Below the pieces are notes generated by a model, which saw only the letters and a program-made list of their open reading frames with translations, was not told the origin of the DNA and did not search any database. A DNA stretch of 62,164 bases from NCBI GenBank assembly GCA_036517175.1, contig DATDXQ010000002.1:1-62164 (forward strand). Reading direction: 5' to 3'. The number at the start of each line of letters is the position of its first letter. Within the stretch, counting starts at the first letter, position 1. The position numbers and the translations under genes were made by a program. Shown piece by piece: positions 1-58,549 of this stretch. Source of the stretch: Minisyncoccota bacterium. Its GTDB lineage: Bacteria; Patescibacteriota; Minisyncoccia; 2-02-FULL-40-12; IGHO2-01-FULL-4-A.

Positions 1-141
1 CAAGCCGCGAGGCGGAGCTAATCCCATCAAACCTCCCCCCAGTTCGGATTGGAGGCTGCAACTTGCCTCCATGAAGCCGGAATCGCTAGTAATCGCAGAT
101 CAGCACGCTGCGGTGAATACGTTCTCGAGTCTTGCACTCAC

Positions 142-996
142 AATAACCGCGCACAGCAGGTTATAGAACTAGGCAGTTCAAATCTGTCCCTCTAATAATA
201 CCCGATTAGAGCGTAGCCAATAGATAGTCACAAGCCGTGAGGCGCGTGGCAGAGGATCTTGAGGCAAATTACAGCCTATATATAAAAACGGCTGTCGAGC
301 CATGAATAGGCGGTGAGCATGGCGAAGACACAAGAAAACCGTTATAGGATGCAAGGAAAAGTTTTATAACTAACCTGTGGAGATCTAATATTGTACTTGA
401 CGCAGCGTCAGGTTAAAATGGGATTGACGCAATATTAGAAGTCAGCTGAGTCATAGTATCCAAAATTTAAAAAGGAGAAGGACTCACTTTTAGTGAAATG
501 TTAAATCCAGATTACATAGTGGGGTTGGTAGACGGTGAAGGAAGTTTTACCATTTATATTCGCAATCCAGATACAACTAAAGTAAGCAATCGAAGGGTGG
601 TAGCTGAGCCTAAATTTTACCTAAAGTTGGTGGAAAAAGACAAAGACATCCTCTACCAATTAAAAAATTTCTTCGGATGTGGTAATGTTTATTTTCAAAA
701 AGACAATCGATCCAACCACCAGAATTGTTACAGATATGAAGTCTTTAATTGGGGACAACTAGAAAAAATAATTATCCCTTTTTTCAAGAAAAATAGGTTG
801 AAACTTAAATCTAAAAAAAAGGATTTTAAAATTTTTTGCAACCTGTTTAATAGACTTCTTAATAAAGAACATCTAAAAAAACCTGGACTAAAAAGGCTTT
901 ACCAAATAAAGCAATTAATGCACTAGGAGCTCGCGTAGTGCGGGAAATCCGCTCGCTACGTGGGAACATCAATTCTTTAATTCCAAAGAAGATAAT
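142..996 (+). mobile_element. Intron-like insertion in 16S (probably group I) carrying a homing endonuclease ORF
   Basis: The universal block ..TTG.AC.CAC / CGCCCGTCA is split by about 855 nt. A LAGLIDADG ORF lies inside. Boundaries were inferred by alignment by eye to the E. coli 16S consensus around position 1400. Confidence 0.75.
498..926 (+). CDS. LAGLIDADG homing endonuclease (single-motif type)
   Basis: N-terminal motif YIVGLVDGEGSF. Size is 142 aa and the ORF lies inside the rRNA insertion. Confidence 0.85.
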   Translation: MLNPDYIVGLVDGEGSFTIYIRNPDTTKVSNRRVVAEPKFYLKLVEKDKDILYQLKNFFGCGNVYFQKDNRSNHQNCYRYEVFNWGQLEKIIIPFFKKNRLKLKSKKKDFKIFCNLFNRLLNKEHLKKPGLKRLYQIKQLMH

Positions 997-1308
997 CGCC
1001 CGTCAATGCAGGGAAGCCGGAGATACCCGAAGCTCCATATTATTATGTGGGACCACGGTAGAGTCGGTGACAAGGCATAAGTCGTAACAAGGCACGGGTA
1101 GCGGAAGCTGCTCGTGGATCACCTCCTTTCTAAAACTTCTTAAAGGGTTTTAGAACAAGGTGTCGATATAGATTATGCGATGTTCGCTCGTCGATACGAG
1201 ACCATCGCGTGATTTATGGTCATCCGTTTTGACCTATTCAAACGGCGTTTGGAGCTAGACATGTCGAATAATGTCTGCCTGGTTAACGATAAGAGATCAT
1301 ATACAAAA

Positions 1309-1331
1309 CCCCGCCTCAAGGCGGGGTTTTG
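1309..1331 (+). terminator. Intrinsic terminator about 180 nt after the 16S 3' end
   Basis: CCCCGCC-TCAA-GGCGGGG followed by TTTTG. An A-run lies upstream, so it may act in both directions. Confidence 0.6.
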
Positions 1332-1596
1332 TAATAAAAAAGCAGTGACATATCACTGCGCTTGCTATTTGGAGTCTGAATCCCTTAAGCTTTGGTCTAA
1401 GGATTTTATGAAATCTATAGACCTGGCGACAAGGTGGTACCGATTATCAATTATACTACCACCAATTCCACCTATAAGTGCAAAAACAAACATGAGGAGG
1501 ATACGCAAAATTAGACCTCGCTTTTCTATGCAATAAAAATACTAGTAGTCATTATATTAAATATTATAACTAATGTCAAATAAATACTTCCTATCA

Positions 1597-1622
1597 AAAA
1601 CCGCCTATTGAGCGGTTTTTGA
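1597..1622. terminator. Bidirectional-looking intrinsic terminator
   Basis: AAAAACCGC-CTATTGA-GCGGTTTTT. Confidence 0.5.
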
Positions 1623-1815
1623 TTAGATATTAGATTTTCTAGACTCATCTTTCATAAGCCTAATCTTTTTGATCTTTTCTTTTAATCTTGCGGCGAGGAG
1701 TTCAATAAATCTATCGTCACCCAACTCATTTATCTCAGCTTCTGGATGTAGACTAGAAATATACATACCCATAATCTATTGGGTACAGCATTGTCCAAAC
1801 GGTTAAATCTCATAG

Positions 1816-2589
1816 TTATTTAATCTGATAAGTAAGCGTAACATTAACAGTTATCTCATTTTCTCCTGGCGGTAATGACGGGCCCTTATTGGCAGACATG
1901 GCTTCAAAGCCTCCGTAGCCTCCGCCTCGATCATATGCGTATCCATATATATCCTCGTAGAAATTAATAATCTTACCAAGCTTAATACCGATCTTACCCT
2001 TTAACTCATCTGCTTTTTCTTTTGCATCTGCTATAGCCAAAGCTCTGGCTTCAGATCTTACTTTCTCAGGATCTTCAATTGAGAAACCTAGATTGGTAAC
2101 ATTATTTACCCCGTTGGAAACAAGACCATCAACGAGATCACTCAACTTATCAAAATCTCTTACCTTAAGCTGGAAGCCTTGAGTCACCTGATAACCGGTT
2201 ATTCTTGCCGCATCAGGCGCAACTGGCACAGCAGCATCATAAATTATCGGGGGTCTGATCTGTGAATATTGCGGATAGATATTGTAGTAAGTCGTTTTAA
2301 TATCCTTGTCTTCAATGCCTTGTTTCTTAAGAAAATCAACTATTGATTGCGATTTCCTTGAGTTAGTATCTTGAGCTGCTTTAGAATTAACCGCCTCGGT
2401 AATAATACTAAAGTCTAGAGTTGAAATATCAGGCTTTGCAAATACTTTACCTTGACCGCTAAAAGAAACTACATTGGTAGTAGTGGCTGTATTAAGCTTC
2501 TGATTAATACCCACAAGCAAAAAGATGGCAGATACTATTACGAGAACAGCGATCGACCAATAGATTATTGTCTTTTGTATTGTATTCAT
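1816..2589 (-). CDS. SIMPL/DUF541-family secreted protein
   Basis: N-terminal TM/signal. The overall pattern (KPDISTLDFSI.., ..ARALAIADAKEKA.., ..ITVNVTLTYQI) is typical of 26 kDa periplasmic immunogenic protein-like (SIMPL) proteins. Confidence 0.65.
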   Translation of the reverse strand: MNTIQKTIIYWSIAVLVIVSAIFLLVGINQKLNTATTTNVVSFSGQGKVFAKPDISTLDFSIITEAVNSKAAQDTNSRKSQSIVDFLKKQGIEDKDIKTTYYNIYPQYSQIRPPIIYDAAVPVAPDAARITGYQVTQGFQLKVRDFDKLSDLVDGLVSNGVNNVTNLGFSIEDPEKVRSEARALAIADAKEKADELKGKIGIKLGKIINFYEDIYGYAYDRGGGYGGFEAMSANKGPSLPPGENEITVNVTLTYQIK

Positions 2590-2737
2590 CCCGAATGAAG
2601 TAACTGCTCCACAGTCTTACACAAATGTTAGGACTGATTAACAGAAACTCTGGATTATATATTAACTATTGTACAATAAGCCCGTAAGGGTTACTTCATA
2701 CGGGATTCATATATATCTATATATTATCAGCTTAGTT

Positions 2738-3241
2738 ATGCCAAGACAAGTATATTTAATTATCAATAATATCCGCAGTGCCTACAATGTGGGGTCTATT
2801 TTACGCACAGCAGATGGAGCAGGTGTGACCAAAATTTTTGTTTGTGGTATTTGTCCAAAGCCAAATGACGAAAAAGTAAAAAAGACAGCCTTAGGAGCTG
2901 AAAAAGAAGTGTCTTGGGAATATCACAAACAAACATGGAGACTACTCAAAAAACTCAAGAATGAAAATTCGAAGATCAAAATCTTAGCCCTTGAACGTTT
3001 CGACCCTTCAATAAAATTCAGGGCAAGCAAGCTAGACGTAATAAATATTTTTAAATACAGCCCGCCCAAAAATTATGACCTAGCTATTATTGTAGGTAAT
3101 GAGGTTACGGGGTTAAATAAAAAAATCCTGTCCTATGCGGACAAGATTGTTGAAATCCCAATGCTTGGCAAGAAAGAATCACTAAATGTATCGGTGGCTA
3201 CCGGGATTGCTCTCTATACTATACTTAACAAAAAAGTTTGA
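2738..3241 (+). CDS. SpoU/TrmH-family RNA 2'-O-methyltransferase
   Basis: YLIINNIRSAYNVGSILRTADGAG.. and the C-terminal ..IPMLGKKESLNVSVATGIALY knot motif. The start was moved to the internal ATG at 2738. Confidence 0.75.
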   Translation: MPRQVYLIINNIRSAYNVGSILRTADGAGVTKIFVCGICPKPNDEKVKKTALGAEKEVSWEYHKQTWRLLKKLKNENSKIKILALERFDPSIKFRASKLDVINIFKYSPPKNYDLAIIVGNEVTGLNKKILSYADKIVEIPMLGKKESLNVSVATGIALYTILNKKV

Positions 3242-3328
3242 TTATTTTAGACTTAGTATCACCTTCGGCCTCTGCCGCAGCAAGAAGATAGCAGTCACAA
3301 ATAACCTCCTACTTAAACAACTGTTTCA

Positions 3329-3967
3329 ATGAAACTACCAAACAAAACTCTGGAACGCAAACTACTAAACCAAGGTTACCAATATGTAATTGGTATAGAC
3401 GAAGTCGGCATGGGCTGCCTTGCCGGACCAGTTGTAGTCTGCGCCACATTATTCACAAAAGATTTTTTCGATAAAAAACATAAGAACCTCCGTTGGTTAA
3501 GAGATTCAAAATTGCTTTTGCCCAGTCAACGGGAAAAATTCGCCAATGAATTGATCGGAAACAAGGAATTACGTTTCAGTATCGCTTACGCCAAACCAGC
3601 AACCATCGATCGAATCAACATTTATCAAGCAGCCCGCAAAGCAATGGTCTTATCACTGAAAAAAATTGGCGTTGATTTAAAAAAGACCATGGTTCTTGTA
3701 GACGGCAATACAACTATTAAAGGAGTCCTAGCAAATCAGCTAGCCATAGTTAAGGGGGATAGGAGAATATTCAGCATCGCTGCGGCATCAATCATTGCAA
3801 AGGTTACCAGAGACAAAATGATGACCCATTACTCTAAAAAATATCCTAATTACGGCTTTGAGAAACACAAAGGTTATGGAACAAAACTCCATCAAACAAT
3901 GTTAATCAAGAATGGTCCTTGTGAAATACACAGAAAATCATTTGCTCCAGTATCAAAATTACTATAA
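3329..3967 (+). CDS. rnhB: Ribonuclease HII
   Basis: The DEVGMGCLAGPVV and ..DSKLL.. motifs plus a C-terminal HRKSF. Confidence 0.85.
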   Translation: MKLPNKTLERKLLNQGYQYVIGIDEVGMGCLAGPVVVCATLFTKDFFDKKHKNLRWLRDSKLLLPSQREKFANELIGNKELRFSIAYAKPATIDRINIYQAARKAMVLSLKKIGVDLKKTMVLVDGNTTIKGVLANQLAIVKGDRRIFSIAAASIIAKVTRDKMMTHYSKKYPNYGFEKHKGYGTKLHQTMLIKNGPCEIHRKSFAPVSKLL

Positions 3968-3979
3968 ACTAAAGCTATT

Positions 3980-5017
3980 ATGATAAAAGTTGCGATCAAT
4001 GGATTCGGAAGAATTGGAAGAATATTTTTCAGACAAGCGCTCAACCAATCAGATTTGGAGGTTGTAGCAATCAACGACCTGGGTTCACCGGAAAATTTGG
4101 CGTACTTGCTTAAATACGATACGGTCTATGGCCGTTATGATAAGGAAGTAGGGGTTAGTGGCAATAAATTAGTCGTGGGACCTGCTTCGCACGAGGCTAC
4201 GCAGGACGGAAAGCACGAGGTACTCGTACTTTCCGAAAAAGATCCGGCAGCTCTACCGTGGAAAGAACTTGGAGTAGATATAGTAATAGAATCCACTGGT
4301 GTTTTTGATTCCAAAGAAAAAGCCATGCCTCACATTACAGCCGGAGCGAAACATGTAATCATAACCGCTCCCACAAAGGATGATATAACTCCGACCATGA
4401 CACCCGGATTGATGGATTTGTCTGACAGTTCAGAAAAAATAACTTCTAATGCATCTTGCACAACTAATGCTGTCAATCCAGTTATGGCGATCATGATGGC
4501 AAATCCAGGCATAAAAAAAGCACTTCTTACTACAATTCACTCTTATACAGCTACTCAGGGACTTGTTGATGGGCCTGACAAGCACGGAGATTTTCGTCGA
4601 GCACGTGCAGCAGCACAAAACATAGTACCCTCAACTACTGGGGCCGCAGTGGCCACTTTCAAAGTTTTACCAAAGTTGATCGGCAAATTTGACGGTATTG
4701 CGCTTCGCGTACCGGTTATTTCAGGCTCTCTAATTGATATAACTTTTGTTGCCAGCCGCTCTACGTCAGTCGAAGAGATAAATAATATTTTCAGAGAAGC
4801 AGCTACCAAGCCGGAATGGCAGGGTATATTAACTGTAACCGAAGACCCGATAGTATCTAGCGACATCCTTAAGAACCCACATGGATCAATAATAGATCCT
4901 GCTCTCACAAGAGTTGTTGATGGAGATTTGGTAAAAGTATTTTCTTGGTATGATAATGAATGGGGCTACTGTGCCATGTTATTGAGACACATTCTTGAAG
5001 TAGCAAAAATAATTTAA
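3980..5017 (+). CDS. gap: Glyceraldehyde-3-phosphate dehydrogenase
   Basis: INGFGRIGR NAD-binding motif, active-site SNASCTTN, and C-terminal WYDNEWGY. Confidence 0.9.
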   Translation: MIKVAINGFGRIGRIFFRQALNQSDLEVVAINDLGSPENLAYLLKYDTVYGRYDKEVGVSGNKLVVGPASHEATQDGKHEVLVLSEKDPAALPWKELGVDIVIESTGVFDSKEKAMPHITAGAKHVIITAPTKDDITPTMTPGLMDLSDSSEKITSNASCTTNAVNPVMAIMMANPGIKKALLTTIHSYTATQGLVDGPDKHGDFRRARAAAQNIVPSTTGAAVATFKVLPKLIGKFDGIALRVPVISGSLIDITFVASRSTSVEEINNIFREAATKPEWQGILTVTEDPIVSSDILKNPHGSIIDPALTRVVDGDLVKVFSWYDNEWGYCAMLLRHILEVAKII

Positions 5018-5295
5018 TGTCTAATTTCTCTATCCTTATTGATGTCCTGCCGTTAATGATAGCAAAAGTATTTTTATTCCTTTTGTTATACAGATTTGTG
5101 TTTTTTATCATTTCTATAAAAAATGGGGAACCGACATCATTCAAAATATTTAAAACGTATGTACTGGTTTTTGTGTTGTGCTATCTGTTTTATATTGCTA
5201 ATTTCGTATTCAGATACGGCAACACGGACATATCAGCCATATGGGATCAGAGCGGATACTTTTTATCATATATATTTAGTTTTAGATTATTTTAA
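5017..5295 (+). CDS. Small hydrophobic hypothetical protein
   Basis: ORF with 2-3 predicted TM segments. No recognisable family. Confidence 0.3.
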   Translation: MSNFSILIDVLPLMIAKVFLFLLLYRFVFFIISIKNGEPTSFKIFKTYVLVFVLCYLFYIANFVFRYGNTDISAIWDQSGYFLSYIFSFRLF

Positions 5296-5308
5296 TTGAT
5301 TGTTTGAC

Positions 5309-6226
5309 ATGCTTCATCTACATGAAAGTAAAATAAAAGAATTGGAGGAAAAGGCAAATCAGGCTCGCCAGCTTTTAATTGAGATGCTGGTTGAAGCGGG
5401 GAGTGGACACACGGCAGGACCATTGGGCATGGCCGATGTATTCACGGCTTTTTATTTTCATATCCTCAACCACGATCCGGCCAATCCTGAATGGGAAGAC
5501 CGGGACAGACTAATACTATCCAATGGCCACATCACGCCCATACGCTATGCTCTTATGGCAATGTCCGGTTATTTTCCAACAGAAGAATTAAAAACTCTGC
5601 GCAAGTTTGGCACAAGATTACAGGGACACCCCGAACGAGAACGTCTGCCCGGCGTTGAGACAACTTCCGGTCCTCTGGGCTCGGGCTTAGGTCAGGCCTG
5701 TGGTATTGCTTATGGGGCACGTATGTCCGCCAAGGGCGGATCCGCCTCCGACGGAGATACACTAAAGTTCCGCACCTATTGTTTTATGTCCGACGGCGAA
5801 CACGATTCAGGTGTTTTGTGGGAATCGGTCCTATTTGCCGGCAAAAACAAACTGTCTAACCTGACGGGGCTAATCGATCGCAACAATATACAGATAGACG
5901 GGATGACGGAAAACATAATGCCACTTGAACCGCTCAAAGAAAAATATGAGGCATTTGGTTGGCATGTTTTGGATATTGACGGCCATAACTTTGAAGAAAT
6001 AGCTGATGCCGTTGAGCAAGCCAAAGCAATTTACGAAAAACCGACAGTTATTATTTCACACAATATTCCGGGGAAGGGAATCAAAGAAATTGAGTTCGAT
6101 TATCGTTGGCACGGTAGCCCACCAGGAGCAGGCCCAGAAGATGTTTTCAAGAAAGATGAACAAAGTAAGAAATTTTTGGAAGAATTACGGACTCTAGGAG
6201 GTAAGCTAGAAAGTGAGCATCAATAA
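5309..6226 (+). CDS. Transketolase, N-terminal subunit
   Basis: GSGHTAGPLGMADV and ..ILSNGH.. TPP-binding motifs. The ATG at 5309 is preferred over the TTG at 5300. Confidence 0.85.
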   Translation: MLHLHESKIKELEEKANQARQLLIEMLVEAGSGHTAGPLGMADVFTAFYFHILNHDPANPEWEDRDRLILSNGHITPIRYALMAMSGYFPTEELKTLRKFGTRLQGHPERERLPGVETTSGPLGSGLGQACGIAYGARMSAKGGSASDGDTLKFRTYCFMSDGEHDSGVLWESVLFAGKNKLSNLTGLIDRNNIQIDGMTENIMPLEPLKEKYEAFGWHVLDIDGHNFEEIADAVEQAKAIYEKPTVIISHNIPGKGIKEIEFDYRWHGSPPGAGPEDVFKKDEQSKKFLEELRTLGGKLESEHQ

Positions 6227-6319
6227 TAAATAGGATGTAGAAGCTAGAAAATAGAAAGTAGAGTTTTAATTCTATTTTCTATTTACTGTTTTCTAATTTC
6301 TAAAGATTGGAGGTGTTTT

Positions 6320-6622
6320 ATGCATAATGTAAATTGCAAATGTGTGCATCATTGGGTAGCCAAGATATTGGTTGTTCTAGCTTGGGTTTCTGCGGTAGTT
6401 TATTGTTGGGCAGCCTGGAGGTCTGTTTTGGTTTGGAATATTGACGCTACACAGTGGTTTTATCATGTGGTTGTATTTGTTTTGTTGGCTTTCAGCATGA
6501 AGTTCTGTGGTTGCTGTTGGAAACGCAAAATGATGAACGGGGCCAGCTGCGTTTGTTCATGCGGCAGTTGCCAAGGAGGAGTGTGCGGCGGGAAACATAA
6601 CGAAGGTCACCAGCACGCTTAA
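6320..6622 (+). CDS. Cys/His-rich small membrane protein, hypothetical
   Basis: Strong SD (GGAGGTG) 7 nt upstream. Two or three TM segments and a C-terminal tail CGCCW..CVCSCGSCQGGVCGGKHNEGHQHA. Confidence 0.5.
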   Translation: MHNVNCKCVHHWVAKILVVLAWVSAVVYCWAAWRSVLVWNIDATQWFYHVVVFVLLAFSMKFCGCCWKRKMMNGASCVCSCGSCQGGVCGGKHNEGHQHA

Positions 6623-6683
6623 TAATCGGATTTTTACCCACCGCCTTTATTGGCGGTGAGATAAGAAACTATTTTTAACTTTT

Positions 6684-6962
6684 ATGAAAAAGATTTTTGC
6701 AATTATTCAGATCATAGCAGGAACGTATGGATTATTGGTAATTTTTAGAATACTGGGAATAATGAACGGCTATGCCACAAAAATTTTTAAAAACTTGCCA
6801 TCGGTTTTACTTATATCAGCACTTTTATTCACTTTTGTTTGCGGCATTTTTATTCTTAAAAATCTTAATAAGAGGTGGCCGATATATATTTCAATATTGG
6901 CATGGGTTTTAGTAGCAATATCATACTTTTATTTTATCTCACAGTTTGGATTTGAGTATTAA
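6684..6962 (+). CDS. Small membrane protein, hypothetical
   Basis: Three hydrophobic segments. No family recognised. Confidence 0.35.
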   Translation: MKKIFAIIQIIAGTYGLLVIFRILGIMNGYATKIFKNLPSVLLISALLFTFVCGIFILKNLNKRWPIYISILAWVLVAISYFYFISQFGFEY

Positions 6963-6966
6963 ATAC

Positions 6967-7959
6967 ATGTTAAACACGGACGCAAAATTAGTCGCTAATT
7001 TATTTGATAAATCTACGCTAGAAATGGCAGCCACTAGAGCCGGTTATGGTTTGGGCTTAGTTGAAGCAGGTGGGAAAGATGAGCGAGTGGTAGTGCTTTG
7101 TGCTGATCTTACTGAATCAACCCGATCAGAGGGCTTCGCCAAAAACTTTCCTGAACGATTCATAGAGATGGGTGTAGCCGAACAAAATATGGCAGTAGTT
7201 GCCTCGGGATTAGCCAACTATGGCAAAATACCTTTCATTTCGTCATATGCTGCCTTCTCTCCTGGCCGCAACAATGAACAGATCCGTACAAATATTTGTA
7301 TTAATAATGTGCCCGTAAAAATAGGCGGAGCGCATGCGGGTATTTCAGTTGGTCCCGATGGAGCGACTCATCAAGCCCTCGAGGATATTGCTCTAATGCG
7401 AGTCCTGCCAAGAATGGTTGTTGTTGTTCCATGCGACGCAGAAGAAACACGTAAGGCTACATTTGCCGCTGCATTTAATGGTTCGCCTACATATATACGA
7501 TTCGGGCGTGAAAAGTCTCCGGTGTTTACAACCAAAGACACACCGTTTGAAATAGGGAAGGCCATCACATTAAGAGAGGGGGAGGACTGTGCAATCATCG
7601 GTTGCGGCATGTTGCTCTACAACGCTTTGGTTGCTGCAGAAGAACTATCAAAGGAGGGCATTGAGTGTATGGTTATTAATTCGCATACAGTTAAGCCCCT
7701 TGATGAAACTACTGTTATAGACGCCGCTCAAAAGTGTGGAGCTGTTGTTAGTGTTGAAGAACATCAAATTGCCGGCGGACTAGGTTCGGCCATTGCGGAA
7801 TGTCTATCTCGCAATTATCCTGTGCCACAAGAGTTTATAGGCGTCCAAGATAGGTTTGGTGAATCGGGTACGCCTGGTGAACTTTTGACAGCTTTTTATC
7901 TAGATGTTCCTGATATAAAAATGGCTGTAAAAAAGGCTATCGGCCGTAAAATTGATTGA
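6967..7959 (+). CDS. Transketolase, C-terminal subunit
   Basis: ..FIEMGVAEQNM.. pyrimidine-binding motif. The ATG at 6967 follows the stop of the previous ORF. Confidence 0.85.
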   Translation: MLNTDAKLVANLFDKSTLEMAATRAGYGLGLVEAGGKDERVVVLCADLTESTRSEGFAKNFPERFIEMGVAEQNMAVVASGLANYGKIPFISSYAAFSPGRNNEQIRTNICINNVPVKIGGAHAGISVGPDGATHQALEDIALMRVLPRMVVVVPCDAEETRKATFAAAFNGSPTYIRFGREKSPVFTTKDTPFEIGKAITLREGEDCAIIGCGMLLYNALVAAEELSKEGIECMVINSHTVKPLDETTVIDAAQKCGAVVSVEEHQIAGGLGSAIAECLSRNYPVPQEFIGVQDRFGESGTPGELLTAFYLDVPDIKMAVKKAIGRKID

Positions 7960-7988
7960 GCGTTTGTCCCGATTTGTCTAAAAATGTG

Positions 7989-8243
7989 ATGTTTTATTTT
8001 TATATTTTAGTTTCAGAAAAAACAGGAAAATATTATTATGGCTCAACGGAAAATTTTGATTTGAGACTAGCTCTTCATAATTCCGGAAAGGTAAAATCAA
8101 CGAAAAATAATTTACCTTGGAAAAATCTATTTGTTCAAAATTTTAACACACTTGCAGAAGCTCGGCAAAGAGAATTACAGGTCAAAAAATGGAAAAGTAG
8201 AGCCGCCATCGAAAGAATGATTAAACATCACATTTTTAGGTAA
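7989..8243 (+). CDS. GIY-YIG nuclease family small protein
   Basis: FYFYILVSEKTGKYYYGSTENFDLRLALHNSG matches the GIY..YIG..R..H pattern. Confidence 0.7.
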   Translation: MFYFYILVSEKTGKYYYGSTENFDLRLALHNSGKVKSTKNNLPWKNLFVQNFNTLAEARQRELQVKKWKSRAAIERMIKHHIFR

Positions 8244-8351
8244 CAAATCAAGGATCCTCGATTTTTCTATCCCGCCCAAAGAACGAGGATGAAAAATCGG
8301 GAGAATGGGAGTTGGGTCAATTAAGGAGTCGGTTAGAAAAGTAGTCGTTAG

Positions 8352-8518
8352 AAAAAAATAGGTTAATTTTTCTTTGTTTGTCTCGCACTTACAAATCTCA
8401 TCAAATTTACTTCGTTTTTCTAGATGAATACAATAGTGTCTTCATCAACGAAAAGCCTTGTAAATTTAATGGCATTTGTTCCTATGCGTCCAGAAAAGAA
8501 AAATTAACCTATTTTTTT
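8352..8518. repeat. MITE-like unit bounded by a perfect 24-bp inverted repeat
   Basis: AAAAAAATAGGTTAATTTTTCTTT at 8352-8375 has its exact reverse complement at 8495-8518. The two are separated by 119 bp of non-coding AT-rich DNA. Confidence 0.4.
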
Positions 8519-8548
8519 GCAAAATTACATCAGCTAGTGTGTTGCATG

Positions 8549-8604
8549 AAAACAGAAAAGGCCCGCGCAGGTCGGAACCCATATGGGTCTTTCCTGCACG
8601 AGCC
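8549..8604 (-). terminator. Intrinsic terminator of the GC-rich ORF
   Basis: On the minus strand there is a 12-bp GC-rich stem (8593-8604 with 8560-8571) plus an inner 5-bp stem. TTTTCTGTTTT follows, 6 nt after the stop codon. Confidence 0.6.
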
Positions 8605-8610
8605 GTGACT

Positions 8611-8916
8611 CTACCACACTAGAAGAGGGTATGGCGAGCCGGAAGTAAGTACGATGTTACTGGTTGGAGTTTTGTACAACTCCGACAGTGCCAGCAGGAC
8701 ACTATCCTCATCTATTCTCCGTACCGTGATCCTGTGATCCTCGTACTTTTCGTACGAGTGCCTTACGGCGTGAGTGTGCCCCTCCGGAATTTCCGGAAAA
8801 CCCTCCTTACCTTCCAGGGCAATTGTTACCGGGTTGTCATGTCCGGCCCGGAAACGAATAAATCCAGATCCTCTCTCGCCCCTGTACTCCAGAGGGTAAA
8901 TATAGTTCGCACTCAT
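8611..8916 (-). CDS. Hypothetical 101-aa protein, GC-rich relative to the flanks
   Basis: GGAGG SD lies 7 nt upstream of the ATG. The ORF has its own consensus promoter and terminator. No family recognised. Confidence 0.6.
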   Translation of the reverse strand: MSANYIYPLEYRGERGSGFIRFRAGHDNPVTIALEGKEGFPEIPEGHTHAVRHSYEKYEDHRITVRRIDEDSVLLALSELYKTPTSNIVLTSGSPYPLLVW

Positions 8917-8943
8917 TTTGCTACCTCCAATACCTATAACTCA

Positions 8944-8972
8944 ATTATACCACATTTTACAGATTTATGCAA
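8944..8972 (-). promoter_or_regulatory. Sigma-70-type promoter for 8611-8916
   Basis: Minus strand reads TTGCAT, 17 nt, TATAAT, with TG upstream of the -10. Confidence 0.5.
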
Positions 8973-9171
8973 GTTTAGTAGGGAGGTTCGCTTCACCTTA
9001 AAAACACGACATAAGACGAGCATGGCTCGGCGATTTTTATCGGTCGCTAATGACGGGTGAAGACCGGAGCGAGTCTAGACGAGCGGATTGTTCGGCGGAG
9101 GCAAACCTTTTCCCGAGTGCTCGCCAGGGAAAAGTGTTTGCGCAGCCGGCTGCTAGAGTTTGCTGGATTTT

Positions 9172-9714
9172 TTATAAAGATTCCCTAATCCTACTCAGAT
9201 CCTCCCGAAACTGCGGTTCCCAGTTGGGATTTCGGAGGATGGCGGCCGGGTGATAGGTTACGAGGATTCTGTGCCCATCTTTTTCTATTAGCCGGCCACG
9301 ATTAGCACCCATACTTCCTTCCATCCCCAAGCCAGACATTGCCACCCTTCCAAGAACCACAATTAATCTTGGCTCAATCACTGAAATTTCTTTTTCGAGG
9401 GCAGGTCTAAATTTTTCTATTTCTTCGGGTGTCGGAGTGCGATTCCCGCCGAATTCATCAGTCGGTCTGTATTTTACAACATTGGTCACATAAAAATCAG
9501 AACGCTTCCAACCGATAGTCTCCAATGTTTTATTTAAGAGTCTGCCGCCACGGCCAATAAACGGCGTGCCTTTTACTTCTTCATCTTTACCGGGCGCTTC
9601 ACCGATTATCATGACCTGATTGTCAGAAGCGCCGTCATTAAAAACAAGTCTCCGCTTAGGGTAGGCTTTTTTTATTGCATTAAAGATTAGCTCCAGCTTT
9701 TGATCTTTTGTCAT
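9172..9714 (-). CDS. Uracil-DNA glycosylase, family 4
   Basis: The GEAPGKDEE and HPAAILR motifs. The start was moved to MTKDQ because the upstream part of the listed ORF runs into tRNA-Ile. Confidence 0.8.
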
Positions 9715-9758
9715 TTTTTTGATATTATAGCCCCATTGAAAAATAGAATAATATTGAC

Positions 9759-9830
9759 GGGCGCATAGTTCAGTGGTAGAACGCTGTCCTGATAAGACAG
9801 AGGTGCCAGGTCCGATTCCTGGTGCGCCCA
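9759..9830 (+). tRNA. tRNA-Ile (anticodon GAT)
   Basis: Cloverleaf read by hand: acceptor GGGCGCA/TGCGCCC, anticodon arm CTGTC-CTGATAA-GACAG, T-arm CCAGG-TCCGATT-CCTGG. No encoded CCA. Confidence 0.9.
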
Positions 9831-9980
9831 CAAATATAAGACAATTGATTGTCTTATATCAGGAATCGGGCGGCGGAGCTTATGATTTTTTGCATTTGGC
9901 AAAAAATCTTGCGAGCCGGTGGCTAGACAAAATTTTAGGAATAAAATTTTAGTCGAAGCCGATTCCTGGTGCGCCCACAA
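9831..9980 (+). other. Structured 'module D' plus a second copy of the tRNA-Ile 3' end
   Basis: Three hairpins (9836-9857, 9884-9908, and 9927-9953 with a GGAA loop) and the conserved GGAGC and GCGAGCCGGTGGCTAG blocks. The 22-nt direct repeat CCGATTCCTGGTGCGCCCACAA occurs at 9812-9833 and 9959-9980. The module is homologous to 51129-51286. Confidence 0.45.
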
Positions 9981-9984
9981 CTTC

Positions 9985-10018
9985 GGGCCGTTAGCTCAGC
10001 GGTAGAGCACCTCATTTG
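9985..10018 (+). pseudogene. Outer tRNA-Ala fragment, nt 1-35
   Basis: GGGCCGTTAGCTCAGCGGTAGAGCACCTCATTTG is near-identical to nt 1-35 of the intact tRNA-Ala. It breaks inside the anticodon. Confidence 0.55.
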
Positions 10019-10178
10019 TTCCGATTTACATCCAATAATAAAATTGAGTAATCGAGAATCCTCGATGGCTACTGGCGGGCCGTTAGCTCAGCTGGTAGAG
10101 CGCCTCATTTGCAATGAGGAGGTCACCGGTTCGAGTCCGGTACGGTCCACACTTGCGGCCCGCCAGTAGCCATCGGGA
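10019..10178 (+). other. 160-nt cassette inserted at anticodon position 35/36 of the outer tRNA-Ala and carrying an intact tRNA-Ala
   Basis: Starts TTCCGATTT and ends TCGGGA. A 19-bp perfect inverted repeat (10063-10081 / 10157-10175) brackets the inner tRNA. The arms are homologous to the cassette at 58624-58771. Confidence 0.5.
10077..10149 (+). tRNA. tRNA-Ala (anticodon TGC)
   Basis: Acceptor GGGCCGT/ACGGTCC with the G3:U70 identity pair. Anticodon arm CCTCA-TTTGCAA-TGAGG and T-arm ACCGG-TTCGAGT-CCGGT. Confidence 0.9.
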
Positions 10179-10236
10179 CAATGAGCCTGCCTGCCACAAT
10201 GCAGGGAGGTCACCGGTTCGAATGCGGTTGGGTCCA
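10179..10236 (+). pseudogene. Outer tRNA-Ala fragment, nt 36 to the 3' end (degenerate)
   Basis: Resumes with CAATGAG. It contains an extra roughly 19-nt hairpin, then GAGGTCACCGGTTCGAATGCGGTTGGGTCCA. Confidence 0.45.
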
Positions 10237-10243
10237 CAAACAC

Positions 10244-10273
10244 TTGACAATAAAGAGTTTCATTTGCTATAAT
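10244..10273 (+). promoter_or_regulatory. Consensus sigma-70 promoter
   Basis: TTGACA, 18 nt, TATAAT, about 30 nt upstream of the ATG at 10304. Confidence 0.5.
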
Positions 10274-10303
10274 TATATATGCTTTTTTATATACGGAGAA
10301 ACT

Positions 10304-10699
10304 ATGCCTAGAGGAATAAGGAAGCGTAATAATTTAACACCCGAAGAGGCTCGCCTAGCTGCTCTGAGACAACAAGTTTTTTCCAGGGCTGTTATTTCTC
10401 TGTCTAGTGAGTTTGAAGCCCTAAAAAAAGCAAAGAATAAGCTTGAGAACGATATCTCTGAGGTAGCTAAGCGACTCAAATCACTTAGCGAATTGATTAC
10501 AAGAATCTCCGAAGGCAACAAGGAAGTACTCATTATTGCCCGAGAAGATCATCCGAGTCTTTTGCAGAACTTACTAGATGGCTGTGAGGAAGTTTCAGCC
10601 GAATTCGAAAGGACTAGCGAACACCTTGAGGCCCTGAATGATTTCCGGCCTGAGAAGCCAATAGTGCGCACGGCAACCAGAGAAGGTGTTTTAGCTTAG
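10304..10699 (+). CDS. Hypothetical coiled-coil protein
   Basis: GGAGA SD before the ATG at 10304. The upstream part of the listed ORF overlaps tRNA fragments. Confidence 0.5.
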   Translation: MPRGIRKRNNLTPEEARLAALRQQVFSRAVISLSSEFEALKKAKNKLENDISEVAKRLKSLSELITRISEGNKEVLIIAREDHPSLLQNLLDGCEEVSAEFERTSEHLEALNDFRPEKPIVRTATREGVLA

Positions 10700-10764: not shown

Positions 10765-12756
10765 GTGGAAAATATTTTTAAAGATCTCAATGAAAAACAA
10801 GTCAACGCAGTGCGGGCCATTGAAGGCCCTGTTTTAATATTGGCCGGGGCAGGCAGCGGCAAGACGAGAGCACTGACTCATCGTATCGCTCATATGATAG
10901 ATCAGGGGATTGCACCTCAAAATATTTTAGCCATAACATTCACTAATAAGGCAGCTGGGGAAATCAAAGACCGAGTTGAAAAACTTCTTACTGCTTCAGG
11001 GCATGTCTTAAATGCCGGAACTTCTCCTTGGATGGGAACCTTCCATTCGATTTGTCTCCGCATATTACGCCATGAAATAGAAAAACTATCTCCTTACACC
11101 ACCAAATTTATAGTATACGATCAGGACGACCAGATATCACTTATAAAAAACGTAATGCAGGAACTGGAAATCAATCCCAAAAAATTCAGCCCTAAAAATA
11201 TACTTGGCAGGATTTCAGCTCTCAAGAGCGAGCTAGTCGGACATGAAGATTTCTCAGATCGCGCAAAAGAGTATTTCGAGAAAATTGTCGCGCCAGTTTA
11301 TACCGGATACCAAACAGCACTGCAAAAAAACAATGCTCTGGATTTTGATGATCTCATAATGTTATGTGTCGCATTACTGCAAAAATATCCAAAAACCCTT
11401 GAAAAATATCAAGATATTTTCCGCTATATTTTAGTTGATGAGTACCAAGACACAAACCATAGCCAATACGTCTGGGTTAACTTATTAGCAAAAAGACGTA
11501 GAAATCTTTTTGTAATCGGTGATGACTATCAATCTATATATTCTTTTCGCCTTGCTAACATACGCAATATTTTGGACTTTGAAAAAGACTATCCCGAAGC
11601 TAAGGTAATATTGCTTGAACAAAACTATCGTTCTACACAAAACATTCTCGCCGCTGCCAATCACATAATTCTTAAAAATAAGAATCAAAAACACAAAAAA
11701 CTTTGGACTGAAAATTCAACGGGCGAAGTAATAAAACTTAAGGAGACTGGCAACGAAAGAAGAGAGGGAGAATACATAATCGAAGCTGTCAAAAAAGATC
11801 TCGAAGGAGGCCACAAACTGAATGATTTTACTATATTATACCGGACACATGCTCAATCACGTGCGATTGAAGAATCTATGATTAAGCATGGCATGCCGTA
11901 CAGAATATTAGGTGGGGTTAAGTTTTACCAAAGACGTGAAATTAAAGACGTTCTCGCTTATCTACGACTGGCAGCAAACCCAAATGATAGTGTCAGCTGG
12001 GATAGAATTTATAACGTACCCGGTCGTGGAATCGGTCAGACCACTTGGCAAAAAACCAAGGAAGCTGCAACTAGTGGGCTTTCAGAAATAGTAAGCGCTT
12101 CCGATAAAATACCTGGCATAGGTCAGAAACAAATTGCCGCCTTGAAGTCTCTAGGTAAGCTTATCGAGGAATTAGTAGATAAATCCAGTAAATACCCGCC
12201 GTCACAACTGGTCAAGCTTGTACTACAAAAAACAAACTATGAATCATATATAAATGATAAGACAACCGATGGGGAAGAACGCTGGGAAAACGTAAAAGAA
12301 ATTTTGACTGCAGTAAAGAAATTTGATGCAACAGAAGAGCCCTCAACGGGAAACGGACTCCAAAGATTCCTAGAAGAAGTAGCTCTTCTACAAGAAACCG
12401 ACAAACTGGAACAGGGAGGCGACATGGTTAACCTCATGACCGTACACTCCGCCAAGGGGTTAGAATTTCCTGTTGTATTCTTGGTTGGAATGGAGGATGG
12501 CATATTCCCTCACTCTCGTTCAATATTTGATATGGGCGAACTGGAGGAAGAAAGACGACTTTGTTATGTTGCCATTACAAGGGCAAAAGAAAAGCTTTAC
12601 ATAACATACTGCCGAGAAAGAGCCTTATACGGTTCTACTCAATTTAATCCTCCGTCTAGATTCCTATTTGAAATACCGGAACAACTTATAAGTTTTTCTC
12701 CACTTAAACAAGCGCAAACAAACAAATATTTTGAAGACTTTATAAACTACGACTAA
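10765..12756 (+). CDS. pcrA: UvrD/PcrA-type ATP-dependent DNA helicase
   Basis: Walker A AGAGSGKTRAL, DEYQDT, and helicase motifs ..VHSAKGLEF.. and ..CYVAITRAK. Confidence 0.85.
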   Translation: MENIFKDLNEKQVNAVRAIEGPVLILAGAGSGKTRALTHRIAHMIDQGIAPQNILAITFTNKAAGEIKDRVEKLLTASGHVLNAGTSPWMGTFHSICLRILRHEIEKLSPYTTKFIVYDQDDQISLIKNVMQELEINPKKFSPKNILGRISALKSELVGHEDFSDRAKEYFEKIVAPVYTGYQTALQKNNALDFDDLIMLCVALLQKYPKTLEKYQDIFRYILVDEYQDTNHSQYVWVNLLAKRRRNLFVIGDDYQSIYSFRLANIRNILDFEKDYPEAKVILLEQNYRSTQNILAAANHIILKNKNQKHKKLWTENSTGEVIKLKETGNERREGEYIIEAVKKDLEGGHKLNDFTILYRTHAQSRAIEESMIKHGMPYRILGGVKFYQRREIKDVLAYLRLAANPNDSVSWDRIYNVPGRGIGQTTWQKTKEAATSGLSEIVSASDKIPGIGQKQIAALKSLGKLIEELVDKSSKYPPSQLVKLVLQKTNYESYINDKTTDGEERWENVKEILTAVKKFDATEEPSTGNGLQRFLEEVALLQETDKLEQGGDMVNLMTVHSAKGLEFPVVFLVGMEDGIFPHSRSIFDMGELEEERRLCYVAITRAKEKLYITYCRERALYGSTQFNPPSRFLFEIPEQLISFSPLKQAQTNKYFEDFINYD

Positions 12757-20340: not shown

Positions 20341-20646
20341 ATGAGATTCCAAGTCCCACAATTCATAGAAACAGAAACCAAGATCATTGGTCCATTTACA
20401 TTAAAACAATTTTTGTATCTTGCTGCGGGAGCGGTCATATTATTTATTTTACAGTATGTCATAAGCTTGACCTATCTTATAATAGTTGCCGTTCCAATAG
20501 TCATAATATCAGTGGCTTTGGCGTTTTATAGGATTGACGGCATACCCCTAGCCAAGTATCTAATGATGGCATTGTCTTATGCCACAGGCCCCAAAAGATA
20601 TCAATTTAGAAAAAATGACACAGAAAACACAAGCACAATCAACTAA
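20341..20646 (+). CDS. PrgI-family small membrane protein (T4SS VirB3-like role)
   Basis: MRFQVPQFIETETKIIGPFTLKQFLYL.. followed by two TM segments matches the PrgI family pattern. Confidence 0.65.
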   Translation: MRFQVPQFIETETKIIGPFTLKQFLYLAAGAVILFILQYVISLTYLIIVAVPIVIISVALAFYRIDGIPLAKYLMMALSYATGPKRYQFRKNDTENTSTIN

Positions 20647-21259
20647 AGATTTTGTTGCGATCAACGATATTAGAGACAATGTCGCCATACTTAAGGATGG
20701 CTCTTTGCGTTCTGTAATAGAAGTCAGCTCAATGAATTTTGAACTTAAATCAGCCGATGAACAAACGGCCATAATACAGGCCTTCCAAAATTTTATAAAC
20801 TCGATAGACTTCCCGCTTCAAATAAACATCAGCTCGCGAAAACTTGATATACAACCGTACATAAAGTCGCTTGATACATTATCTACTGAAATTTCAAATG
20901 AATTAATGAAGATACAAGCAATTGAATATTCTCGTTTTATTAAGGGCCTCACTGAACTTGCCAATATTATGTCGAAAAAATTCTACGTGGTTATACCTCT
21001 GTATGCTATCGAAGCAGCTACCTCAACAGGAGGTACAGCAAAAGGATTTTTAGGAGTATTAAAGGGTGCTGTTAATCCAGGGGCAGCAACCAAAAATATC
21101 ACAGATCAAGAATTGCAAAACTACAAGATACAACTTGACCAAAGAATAGACTTTATAATGAATGGCATAGGAGGATTAGGCCTAGACGGACGTGTATTGC
21201 AAAAAGATGAGTTGATGAATTTTTATTATTCTTACTACAATCCAGGCAAACATTTATAG
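20615..21259 (+). CDS. VirB4/PrgJ-type N-terminal domain encoded as a separate ORF
   Basis: ..DFVAINDIRDNVAILKDGSLRSVIEVSSMNFELKSADEQTAIIQAF.. resembles the N-terminus of Gram-positive VirB4-like ATPases. The start is set to the internal Met. Confidence 0.5.
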   Translation: MTQKTQAQSTKDFVAINDIRDNVAILKDGSLRSVIEVSSMNFELKSADEQTAIIQAFQNFINSIDFPLQINISSRKLDIQPYIKSLDTLSTEISNELMKIQAIEYSRFIKGLTELANIMSKKFYVVIPLYAIEAATSTGGTAKGFLGVLKGAVNPGAATKNITDQELQNYKIQLDQRIDFIMNGIGGLGLDGRVLQKDELMNFYYSYYNPGKHL

Positions 21260-21261
21260 CC

Positions 21262-57817: not shown

Positions 57818-58549
57818 TTAATTTTCTTGTTTTGGCAAGTCTTTTAAAAAGTCATCAAGTTTTGCTGGTAGATCGATCTCTACGCTGATTGCCATACCGG
57901 AGGGCGAAGTAAACGAAAGTTTATTGGCATGTAAAAACATACGACCAAGCTCGGGTGGACATACGGCACGTTTGCCGCTGTAAATTGGATCGCATACTAT
58001 TGGGTAACCCATGGTTTTTGCGTGGACTCTCAATTGGTGGGTGCGGCCTGTTAATGGTCTGAATTCAATGAGGGAATAGTCATTAAATTTTTGTAAAACC
58101 TTGAACTCAGTTATTGCAGATTTCTCTTCAAGATTTTTTTTGCCTTTTATTTTAGTACTTTGTTTTGAGCCGAGTTTACCAAGAGGAATGTCTATTGTGC
58201 CGGAGGATTCCCTTACAATCCCATAAACCAAAGCAAGATAAGTTTTTTTTATTTTTCTTTCCTTGAAAATATTTTTCAGGTAGTTAAAAGAAGACTGGTT
58301 CTTGGCTATCAACAAAAGTCCTGATGTTTCCCTGTCTAAGCGATGAACTATGCCAGGTCTGAGATCTGTCCAGACCCCAACACTATCGCCATAGTTATCC
58401 CGTATTGTAGAAATTTCGGGATGTTTTTCTAGTACCCAACTTACAACACTTTCGCTTTTGTCTTGTCTATTTACCGGATGTGTTAAAAGACCTGAGGGCT
58501 TGTCTATAATTAAAAAATCATCATCTTCGTAAACAATTGGAATGTTCAT
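57818..58549 (-). CDS. RluA-family pseudouridine synthase
   Basis: Catalytic [12 protein letters not shown] and ..HQLRVH. Confidence 0.85.

Follow-up and report, generated by a model that had tools for sequence, protein, structure and literature searches.

Miniature cassettes with a replacement tRNA split tRNA genes in groundwater Patescibacteria and are probably derived from a small GIY-YIG homing-type element

Two transfer RNA (tRNA) genes in a 62,164-nt stretch of a Minisyncoccota (Patescibacteriota) genome (GenBank assembly GCA_036517175.1, contig DATDXQ010000002.1, positions 1 to 62,164; hereafter the window) are interrupted within the anticodon loop by a short cassette, which itself carries an intact tRNA gene with the same anticodon as its target. 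The affected genes, tRNA-Ala(UGC) at 9985-10236 on the plus strand and tRNA-Val(UAC) at 58549-58836 on the minus strand, are uninterrupted in relatives, and the two cassettes belong to a family with defined ends, one member of which encodes a GIY-YIG nuclease and lies close to the Ala locus. Taken together, our data make it likely that the resident tRNA genes were split at the DNA level by a miniature cassette of GIY-YIG homing-type origin.

Results

Two tRNA genes that hold a second tRNA gene

At the Ala locus, the 5' half of the outer tRNA-Ala(UGC), the old resident (nucleotides 1-35; 9985-10018, plus strand), comprises 34 nt, lacks one D-loop base, ends with the anticodon base G35 and shares 32 of 34 positions with the inner gene. 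It is followed by a cassette of 160 bp (10019-10178), which starts with TTCCGATTT and ends with ATCGGGA, and the outer gene then resumes at C36 (CAATGAG) and extends from 10179 to 10236. Upon in silico excision of the cassette the joined outer halves are still called as tRNA-Ala(UGC) by ARAGORN, with two mismatches in the acceptor stem, one in the T-stem and a 21-nt mini-hairpin within the variable region (10186-10206). Inside the cassette, hairpin 1 (10022-10029 paired with 10048-10054) and the linker AGAATCC (10055-10061) precede hairpin 2, the arms of which (10063-10082 and 10156-10175) form an inverted repeat of 20 nt with 100% complementarity. This second hairpin encloses an intact tRNA-Ala(UGC) with a G3:U70 pair (10077-10149/50, plus strand), which is detected by ARAGORN, scores 72 bits with the Rfam tRNA model and is presumed to be the functional gene. 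The remaining 86 nt of the insert are not tRNA; its ends pair with each other and lengthen the outer anticodon stem (fold z-score -7), so that the predicted junction is a continuous helix of 14 bp with one bulged U. A tRNA-Ala within a split tRNA-Ala had already been described in the first-pass annotation, and its coordinates, the break between nucleotides 35 and 36, the CAATGAG restart, the ends of the insert and the G3:U70 pair were all confirmed, while the perfect inverted repeat given there as 19 bp turned out to be 20 nt long.

The Val locus follows the same plan, as had also been proposed. The 5' part of the outer tRNA-Val(UAC) (58772-58836, minus strand) contains a double mini-hairpin of 30 nt in the D-loop (58824-58795) and breaks off after A35. 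The inserted cassette of 148 bp (58624-58771) consists of TTCCCGATTT, hairpin 1, the linker CAATCC, hairpin 2 with a perfect 20-nt inverted repeat (58624-58643 and 58703-58722) and the end CGGGA, which is directly followed by C36 of a heavily decayed 3' remnant (58549-58623). This remnant ends with TTCGATCCCTTCAGCGCCCACCA and shares its final A with the start codon of RluA. The inner tRNA-Val(UAC) (58636-58709) is intact according to ARAGORN and Rfam (74.9 bits); its D-loop and T-arm resemble the cargo of other Val cassettes (e.g., L114) and not the resident tRNA-Val of relatives, and its acceptor stem and T-arm differ from the resident lineage.

Shared by both cassettes are the left end, the first hairpin (CGATTTNN...NNAAATCG), the ATCC block and the CGGGA end, with the first hairpin reading AC/GT in the Ala and GT/AC in the Val cassette. 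Chance can be excluded as a reason for this likeness because dozens more copies have the same ends. The general order is a left end T(T/C)CCGATTT, hairpin 1, a linker ending in ATCC, hairpin 2 and a right end CGGGA, with short terminal inverted repeats (TCCCG/CGGGA, up to TTCCGATTT/AAATCGGGA) and with the carried tRNA at the tip of hairpin 2, flush with its acceptor stem.

No promoter-like site was detected within the Ala or the Val cassette. A weak promoter-like site is present at 9700-9728, upstream of tRNA-Ile, and the inner Ala gene would probably be transcribed by read-through from this site, although the inference is a weak one. On the other side of the locus, a promoter that matches the sigma-70 consensus perfectly (TTGACA, 18 nt, TG-TATAAT; 10244-10273, plus strand) starts 8 nt past the 3' end of the outer tRNA-Ala and precedes an open reading frame (ORF) of 131 residues (10304-10699) without a Pfam match.

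The mini-hairpins in the outer genes are a recurring feature. The double form TCAGCC-NNN-GGCTGA CCCRCC-NNN-GGYGGG (30 nt) follows D-stem base 12 of dead 5' tRNA fragments at three sites on the minus strand, in the outer tRNA-Val (58795-58824) and at ~51405-51456 and ~46585-46633, where the hosts are truncated fragments just upstream of tRNA-Arg(UCG) and tRNA-Lys(CUU), respectively. Similar GC-rich mini-hairpins (TTCCCGCC-AAA-GGCGGGA, CCTGCC..GGCAGG) occur in the outer genes of four loci from other contigs (L097, L117, L169, L177), and the hairpin at 10186-10206 in the outer tRNA-Ala is another one. They may represent minimal forms or footprints of element ends.

The nested arrangement is reproduced in independent assemblies and absent from relatives

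The protein encoded by the neighboring uvrD gene was found on contigs of eight assemblies. Five independent ones (L001, L002, L003, L006, L007) share the complete 601-nt Ala region at 100% identity, and the sole difference in a sixth is a run of N, representing a scaffold gap. An assembly artefact was therefore rejected; a collapse is likewise excluded because the shared stretch of 34 nt is far below the k-mers of assemblers. The samples carrying the window sequence are subsurface groundwater metagenomes, and homologues with assigned names assign the organism to Candidatus Yanofskybacteria (Patescibacteria).

Related Yanofskybacteria have preserved the empty sites. For the Val locus, the FtsH-RluA-L19 neighborhood is retained in L009, which additionally contains the HAD gene, and in L010, and both have an uninterrupted tRNA-Val(UAC) immediately 5' of RluA; the intact gene in L010 ends with TTCGATCCCTTCACCGCCCACCA, the same end as that of the outer Val remnant. 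In L011 an intact tRNA-Val(UAC) follows tRNA-Ile(UAU), with two genes between tRNA-Val and RluA. For the Ala locus, L215 (UDG 79% identical, UvrD and transketolase syntenic) and L218 contain tRNA-Ile(GAU) and then an intact tRNA-Ala(UGC) next to UDG, separated by 9 nt in L215 and ~35 nt in L218. In the window, the spacer CAACTT (CCCA-CAACTT-GGGCC) joins the outer tRNA-Ala to a tRNA-Ile 3' end that is present as a displaced copy (9958-9979), with the same spacing between Ile 3' end and Ala as in the intact pair of L215. As these uninterrupted genes occupy syntenic sites, the outer genes represent the original residents, and the inner ones were brought along by the insert. Judged from these comparisons, both loci are insertions and not duplications, and filled and empty alleles coexist at one site among relatives, as is the case for homing elements.

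In L215, the closest relative, the UvrD helicase (6045-9380, 1111 residues) is interrupted by an intein that includes a LAGLIDADG domain; this intein is missing from UvrD in the window (10765-12756, 663 residues).

The cassettes belong to a large family with diverse tRNA cargo

Metagenome contigs were scanned with a pattern built from the left arm, which demanded TT and a non-C base before the left end, and at least 118 stretches were retrieved, many of them from groundwater samples such as Hainich; right ends were located by a best-pairing search. Among the first 80 loci, 53 have a tRNA beginning within ~150 nt of the ATCC block, mostly ~11 nt after it. Curation of the window together with L097-L176 resulted in 47 cargo-bearing copies (44 distinct), and a second set (L177-L214) added 17 more, giving at least 61 distinct cargo-bearing copies, mostly from groundwater samples. 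The cargo of the 44 distinct copies comprises Ser-GGA (13), Ser-UGA (12), Val-UAC (5), Cys-GCA (5), Ser-CGA (4), Arg-GCG (2), Ser-GCU (2) and Ala-UGC (1), that is eight tRNA species, or nine counting the Thr cargo of L228. With a covariance model of the left arm (R1) the family scores 30-70 bits (Val cassette: 57.2 bits, E 7e-11), and second copies became detectable inside some loci. At the base of hairpin 1, pairing amounts to 98%, and two of the pairs covary through double-sided changes. The first-pass annotation had proposed an arm-based covariance search for further copies; the arms proved to be conserved in dozens of them.

Within this family, the Val cassette, with its linker CAATCC, falls into the main subtype and the Ala cassette into a second one, characterized by TTCCGATTT, the linker AGAATCC and TCGAT...ATCGGGA. 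Elsewhere this second subtype was seen without cargo tRNA, either as tRNA-less copies with the same ends and linker (L103, L165, L170) or at the 5' end of a protein gene (L161, L173).

Several searches for a broader relationship were negative. Neither the arms nor any ribozyme matched Rfam, at gathering score over the window or at E<=10 over 9700-10300, and Rfam searches of window positions 1-9200 and of L145 and L146 returned nothing useful. On viral contigs the left-arm pattern gave three chance matches, none with a tRNA, so a phage origin is unsupported. We also rejected two further ideas. Leader-trailer stems are not a general tRNA feature of the lineage, and the arms are not ordinary tRNA flanks, being mostly absent from the other tRNAs in the window, L009, L010 and L011; the exception, the tRNA-Ile(UAU) of L011, itself lies inside an interrupted outer tRNA. 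A role of the linker CAA as base-pairing guide for a TTG target is not compatible with the Val cassettes, which keep CAA at the target TTTA.

A family member encodes a small GIY-YIG nuclease

A search for left and right end motifs spaced 300-6000 bp from each other, in which the other pairs were mostly chance matches, led to a nuclease-bearing family member at 7967-8302 (plus strand), 1.7 kb upstream of the Ala locus. Preceded by TTTG, it begins with TCCCGATTTGT-CTAAAAATGTGATG and continues with an ORF of 84 residues (7989-8243), CATCACATTTTTAG-GTA-ACAAATCA, the linker AGGATCC, hairpin 2 (TCGATTTTTC...GAAAAATCGGGA) and the end AAAAATCGGGA; inverted repeats connect 7978-7997 with 8220-8239 (95%) and 7964-7978 with 8291-8305. 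The two-hairpin module of the cassettes recurs here, with the ORF occupying the loop of hairpin 1, and the arms without ORF, commonly CGATTTGTCTAAAAATTC...GAATTTTTAGnnACAAATCG, correspond to the same stem with the ORF deleted. The linker is near-identical to the AGAATCC of the Ala subtype, and over linker and hairpin-2 foot the Ala cassette (AATCGAGAATCCTCGAT) and the nuclease-bearing copy (AATCAAGGATCCTCGAT, 8247-8263) agree at 15 of 17 positions.

The 84-residue protein consists only of a GIY-YIG domain (PF01541, E 3e-14), matches the UPF0213 structures 1zg2 and 1ywl over residues 2-77 (E 5e-4) and shows a weak N-terminal match to a group I intron endonuclease model. Across full-length elements the nuclease ORF has 79-84 residues, and this small domain-only format is that of the stand-alone GIY-YIG proteins of the UPF0213 type (~80-100 residues). 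Four copies with the ORF in hairpin 1 were found (window, L219, L223, L228), two of which are orthologous: L219 contains the counterpart of the window copy after the transketolase gene, whereas L215 lacks the nuclease-bearing element together with the 1.2-kb intergenic stretch that holds it in the window. The other two, L223 (Ser-GGA) and L228 (Thr-UGU), combine the ORF in hairpin 1 with a cargo tRNA at the tip of hairpin 2, and each of these full elements lies inside the anticodon loop of a cognate tRNA. In two loci beside tRNA-Glu the ORF is adjoined by tRNA-less copies, one upstream in L225 and one on each side in L226, and GIY-YIG homologues amid tRNA fragments were detected in five further loci (L097, L176, L177, L181, L186).

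The GIY-YIG gene is the sole ORF found inside any element (148-510 bp). A Y1 or other transposase was found neither among the genes annotated here near copies nor in the annotated part of the window, and the lone integrase-family gene observed (L217) is not beside an element. The best reading of these sequences is that the Ala and Val cassettes would be nuclease-less derivatives of a GIY-YIG homing-type element, with 7967-8302 as a candidate source of the mobilizing enzyme.

Insertion is precise, matches the cargo and is independent of orientation

All 18 outer genes that are recognizable after in silico removal of the insert share the anticodon of the cargo, and in 35 of the 44 distinct copies the 6- to 8-mer obtained by joining the flanks is the cargo's own anticodon loop. 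As the junction thus restores an intact loop, insertion neither duplicates nor deletes target bases. In 18 copies the break follows loop base 4, and in another 14 it follows loop base 3. The family is restricted neither to the break between positions 35 and 36, which the first-pass annotation had pointed out, nor to tRNAs, and also uses position 34/35, D-loops (L170, L225), the T-loop (L228), one small RNA gene, the 5' end of a protein gene and an intergenic site. Most copies follow TTG or TTA, a preference that the search pattern with its TT and non-C base partly imposed; copies reached by other routes follow TTCG, CTGG, ATCG and GGTTC.

Nine of the 44 copies, comprising all with Cys-GCA or Ser-CGA cargo, are antisense to both outer and inner tRNA, which leads us to reject an RNA-level role in the tRNA transcript. 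The outer genes are in decay: tRNA prediction now fails for 29 of the 47, and in the anticodon stem on average 3.3 of 5 positions are paired, compared to 4.9 of 5 in the inner cargo genes. Cassettes in different outer genes (L114/L130, L147/L158/L117, L107/L127) are 91-96% identical over the cassette, with identity falling at the cassette ends and with dissimilar outer halves and flanks; the cassette is, on this comparison, a conserved unit. Compensatory changes distinguish the outer acceptor stem of L147 from that of L117 (GGAGGGT/ACCCTCC vs. GGAGAGG/CCTCTCC), and the outer genes had therefore diverged as working genes before each insertion. Together with the empty sites and the same-anticodon cargo, these near-identical cassettes support the earlier suggestion of a non-autonomous element that brings a replacement tRNA. 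Insertion can also be repeated, as L169 has three levels of nesting and the cargo gene itself is interrupted in L104, L115 and L159.

Restoring of the broken target extends beyond tRNAs, as is evident from an RNA-like gene and a protein gene. In L146 (1742-1900) an element splits a hairpin-closed RNA-like gene of ~75 nt (GGGGGTCGCCACGACGAGCAC...AGATTG|GAGG...TGGCGACCCC) and carries a second copy of it as cargo, and a cargo-less copy splits the same kind of gene in L145 (~3100-3160); this gene has no Rfam match. In L161 (2470-2640, plus strand) and L173 (~1800-2000) an element copy resides in the 5' end of a gene for a Cys-rich protein, after ...TGCCAAAATTG; the old start with 11 codons lies upstream of the element, and a new start codon with an N-terminal segment lies downstream, followed by the rest of the 567-residue ORF.

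Other features of the window and its relatives

A different arrangement is found after two intact tRNA genes. The tRNA-Ile(GAU) (9832-9979, plus strand) and the tRNA-Arg(UCG) (51133-51285, minus strand) are each followed by a conserved element of ~125-135 nt (GCGGAGC..ATTTTTGCA-loop-GCAAAAAT..GCGAGCYGGTGGCTAG..TCGAAG) and then by a direct repeat of their own T-loop-to-3'-end (Ile: 22 nt, 9958-9979). The same layout is found in relatives, at Leu and Gly in L009 and at Arg in L010, and is suggestive of a second family with the T-loop as its point of entry. In L010 (9785-9905) and L011 (7660-7775) a tRNA 5' fragment is succeeded by yet another conserved structured insert of ~110 nt (GTGGGTTGAA-hairpin-TTCAACGGGAAATTTAGCGAACTTGTGAGCGTATTTATC-hairpin-GATAATAAATCAAATTTCCC), and in L011 the inner tRNA-Ile(UAU), with a leader-trailer stem of 12 bp, lies inside an outer tRNA-like gene. 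U55 is near-universal in tRNAs. Some otherwise normal tRNAs, at 9812-9818 and 54019-54025 (minus strand) in the window as well as tRNA-Ile(UAU) and tRNA-Val(UAC) in L009, have the T-loop UCCGAUU with C at position 55, and the heptamer TCCGATT is also part of TTCCGATTT, with which the Ala-type cassette starts.

The first 926 nt of the window contain a 3' end of the 16S ribosomal RNA (rRNA) gene, in which model positions 1251-1533 are compressed into 193 nt, followed by an ORF for a LAGLIDADG endonuclease (498-926). There is no 23S rRNA gene within the 62 kb, and the tRNA-Ile/Ala pair, which usually resides in the ribosomal spacer, is located 9.5 kb away. About 10 kb downstream of the Ala locus, genes for TraC-like, DUF87 and TraG-type P-loop proteins (20579-23046, plus strand) suggest an apparatus for DNA transfer or uptake, which could supply DNA for homing. 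Small ORFs in 1216-1536, 6320-6962 and 8611-9060 have no Pfam match.

Discussion

How a cassette might spread

Besides the anatomy of the two loci, our data allow a proposal for how such cassettes spread. The nuclease from a full-length copy would cut an intact tRNA gene at an exposed loop, possibly by recognition of a hairpin or cruciform structure, and host repair would copy the cassette from a filled copy, with the outer tRNA halves serving as homology, as in homing. The carried tRNA would then assume the function, making the insertion costless to the host, and the outer halves would decay as a pseudogene, with only the inner gene expressed as a functional tRNA. Renewed invasion of the newest inner gene would produce nests that are two or three levels deep. 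Repair of this kind would explain the strict match between cargo and target, which is beyond the reach of a short target motif alone, as well as the absence of a target duplication and the repeated nesting. Co-conversion of short flanking tracts would in addition explain outer halves whose two sides mismatch each other. A tRNA might have been captured by two insertions at the foot of the acceptor stem, as seen at the 5' end of the tRNA-Glu in L226, and subsequent reduction.

Alternative explanations

In the most serious alternative, the cassettes would be hairpin transposons that another enzyme, supplied in trans (for example IS200/IS605-type Y1, RAYT-like or a recombinase acting on folded hairpins), moves in single-stranded form, with the GIY-YIG gene as a frequent passenger of hairpin 1 and the cargo match produced by selection, as non-cognate hits on single-copy tRNA genes would be lethal. 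Such movement would fit the lack of target duplication, the subterminal hairpins, the insertion into loops of foldable DNA and the tRNA-less copies at unrelated sites, and a single-stranded tRNA gene that keeps the ends paired would be a tolerated load at a hairpin tip. We nevertheless consider this explanation unlikely. The transposase it calls for was not found, near copies or in the annotated part of the window, and the gene that is found is for a GIY-YIG protein, placed in hairpin 1 of four copies and adjoined by tRNA-less elements in L225 and L226. Moreover, random insertion at a motif of 3 nt predicts many cargo-bearing copies outside cognate genes, and none was observed among ~60.

A purely local history, in which decayed tandem duplicates or scars of integrase-mediated integration and excision created the nests, could draw on the fact that tRNA genes are classic integration sites and that the window itself holds simple 3'-end duplications at tRNA-Ile(GAU) (9958-9979) and tRNA-Arg. 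It would have to account for arms with defined ends kept across dozens of unrelated loci and all of the cargo species, for left and right arms that are complementary to each other and not independent remnants, and for an inner tRNA-Val whose acceptor and T arms are unlike those of the resident lineage. Since there is no direct-repeat core at the junctions, the recombination scar once suggested for these loci falls away as well, and we regard a local origin as very improbable. Site-specific recombination of a circular form was rejected: the junctions fit neither the shared core of tyrosine-type nor the shared dinucleotide of serine-type enzymes, and a crossover in the cargo tRNA would yield two chimeric genes instead of a nest. 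Even slightly less credible is an intron-like arrangement, in which the insert is removed from the RNA and the halves are joined to give two functional tRNAs, or in which the outer tRNA shape serves as a processing scaffold. The paired insert ends that extend the outer anticodon stem and the ~38% of outer genes that still fold as tRNA without the insert speak for it. However, in the antisense copies the RNA would carry the reverse complement of the insert, both outer genes of the window have further insertions and broken stems, most outer genes elsewhere are degraded, copies also occur in D- and T-loops and outside RNA genes, and neither an Rfam match such as a group I core nor a bulge-helix-bulge was found. 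This option of the first-pass annotation is therefore not tenable.

Several points weigh against the GIY-YIG homing-type origin that we prefer. Nuclease activity, cleavage and transfer are inferred from sequence, and the protein would have to act with the catalytic domain only, without the DNA-binding domain of the characterized GIY-YIG homing enzymes. The ORF-bearing copies found have the AGGATCC linker and none has the CAATCC linker of the Val type. The proposal leaves unaccounted for how the cargo tRNA was originally placed flush at the tip of hairpin 2, and tRNA-less copies, as after the transketolase stop codon or in D- and T-loops, imply some true transposition. The rule that targets follow TTR was partly imposed by the search pattern. 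Finally, some near-identical cassette pairs, such as L114 and L130, are at orthologous loci, and their similarity may reflect one old event and vertical descent with selection on the cassette.

Comparison with known systems

Among the closest parallels to our elements are the Seg genes of T-even phages, such as T4 SegB, a free-standing GIY-YIG homing endonuclease gene in a tRNA gene cluster (PMC2330249; review PMC2988022). In both cases a GIY-YIG gene is tied to tRNA genes, and the Seg genes spread, unspliced, by cutting alleles that lack the gene and by repair copying, in which flanking DNA is transferred along with the nuclease gene. Seg genes, however, lie between genes and bring no spare copy of the target, whereas the elements described here insert into genes and supply one. 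Furthermore, Seg proteins and I-TevI have 200-250 residues including a DNA-binding domain, in contrast to the much shorter domain-only protein found here, the gene of which is embedded in a conserved two-hairpin module with defined ends and nuclease-less derivatives. As in homing elements generally, the endonuclease gene is inside the insert in 7967-8302, L219, L223 and L228, whereas the Ala and Val cassettes lack it; unlike them, the insert is neither spliced nor intergenic, as it lies within a gene and is neutral by virtue of the spare gene.

Group I introns also occupy anticodon loops of bacterial tRNA genes, some of them with homing endonuclease genes (PMC3984707; bioRxiv 10.1101/2020.01.27.920355), and resemble our cassettes in being harmless to the host and variably present among relatives. 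The intron achieves this by RNA self-splicing, whereas the cassette does so by a second complete tRNA inside the insert, in either orientation. No group I core (P3-P9) was matched at gathering score over the window or at E<=10 over 9700-10300, and the fixed sense orientation of such introns is contradicted by the nine antisense copies. Likewise, the junction with its single bulged U differs from a bulge-helix-bulge, in which a helix of 4 bp separates two bulges of 3 nt each. Essential genes that are interrupted by selfish DNA and whose fragments stay in the genome, as at our loci, are also found where homing endonuclease insertions divide a gene into working parts and among archaeal split or multi-intron tRNA genes (PMC4390854, PMC4033280). 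There, the pieces still make a product, by subunit assembly or bulge-helix-bulge splicing; here, they are abandoned and a fresh gene is supplied.

Integrase-type elements such as prophages and genomic islands target tRNA genes and restore the 3' part with their own copy. Thus, they have in common with the cassettes an essential tRNA as target, a replacement sequence that keeps the function and a displaced old fragment. They differ by a partial gene copy that begins at the crossover point, a direct-repeat core at both junctions, a size of kilobases and an integrase, compared to a whole nested tRNA, 148-510 bp and no integrase gene inside; at our junctions the k-mers reproduce the anticodon loop precisely and contain no repeated base that could represent an att core. 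Miniature palindromic repeats are a further group for comparison, and include REP/REPIN sequences with RAYT, IS200/IS605-derived PATEs and the Rickettsia palindromic elements. They are ~100-150 bp long, hairpin-forming, non-autonomous and moved in trans, and those of Rickettsia also occur inside genes, RNA genes among them, but to our knowledge none carries a replacement for the interrupted gene. Their enzymes are Y1/HUH proteins or none is assigned, in contrast to the GIY-YIG nuclease nested in a hairpin loop. The combination of subterminal hairpins and no target duplication is shared with IS200/IS605 and REP/RAYT, yet the ORF of our autonomous candidates is for a GIY-YIG protein and not for a Y1 transposase. 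The short terminal inverted repeats recall miniature inverted-repeat transposable elements of the DDE type, but the target duplication is missing. The best reading of these comparisons is a variant of a homing element that is neutralized by gene replacement instead of splicing.

A literature search, although incomplete in coverage, revealed no nested tRNA genes, no tRNA-carrying mini-elements and no mobile UPF0213-type GIY-YIG genes in Patescibacteria, which agrees with the initial statement that no such bacterial system has been described. With somewhat more reserve than for the origin of the two cassettes, we favor the view that they represent a previously unrecognized class of minimal autonomous elements of ~340-510 bp. 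These would consist of two DNA hairpins and an 80-residue GIY-YIG nuclease, invade essential structured-RNA genes, rely on a spare copy of the target instead of splicing and lead to a continual horizontal replacement of tRNAs across groundwater Patescibacteria, with Russian-doll nests of dead genes as a consequence.

Implications

If this holds true, gene replacement would be a third way for selfish DNA to reside in an essential gene without lethal effect on the host, besides RNA splicing in introns and protein splicing in inteins. The form with the nuclease would then rank with the smallest autonomous mobile elements known and assign a function to the widespread and uncharacterized small GIY-YIG proteins of the UPF0213 type, and a structure-guided nuclease of 80 residues together with a self-contained insertion cassette would be a candidate tool. 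The nests provide an internal timeline, with the outermost gene being the oldest, that lends itself to the measurement of decay rates. For the Patescibacteria, our proposal would mean that the tRNA genes of reduced genomes are turned over horizontally, cassette by cassette, which would bear on tRNA phylogeny, on the annotation of nested and fragmentary genes and on how the tRNA pseudogenes and hairpin inserts of these organisms are read.

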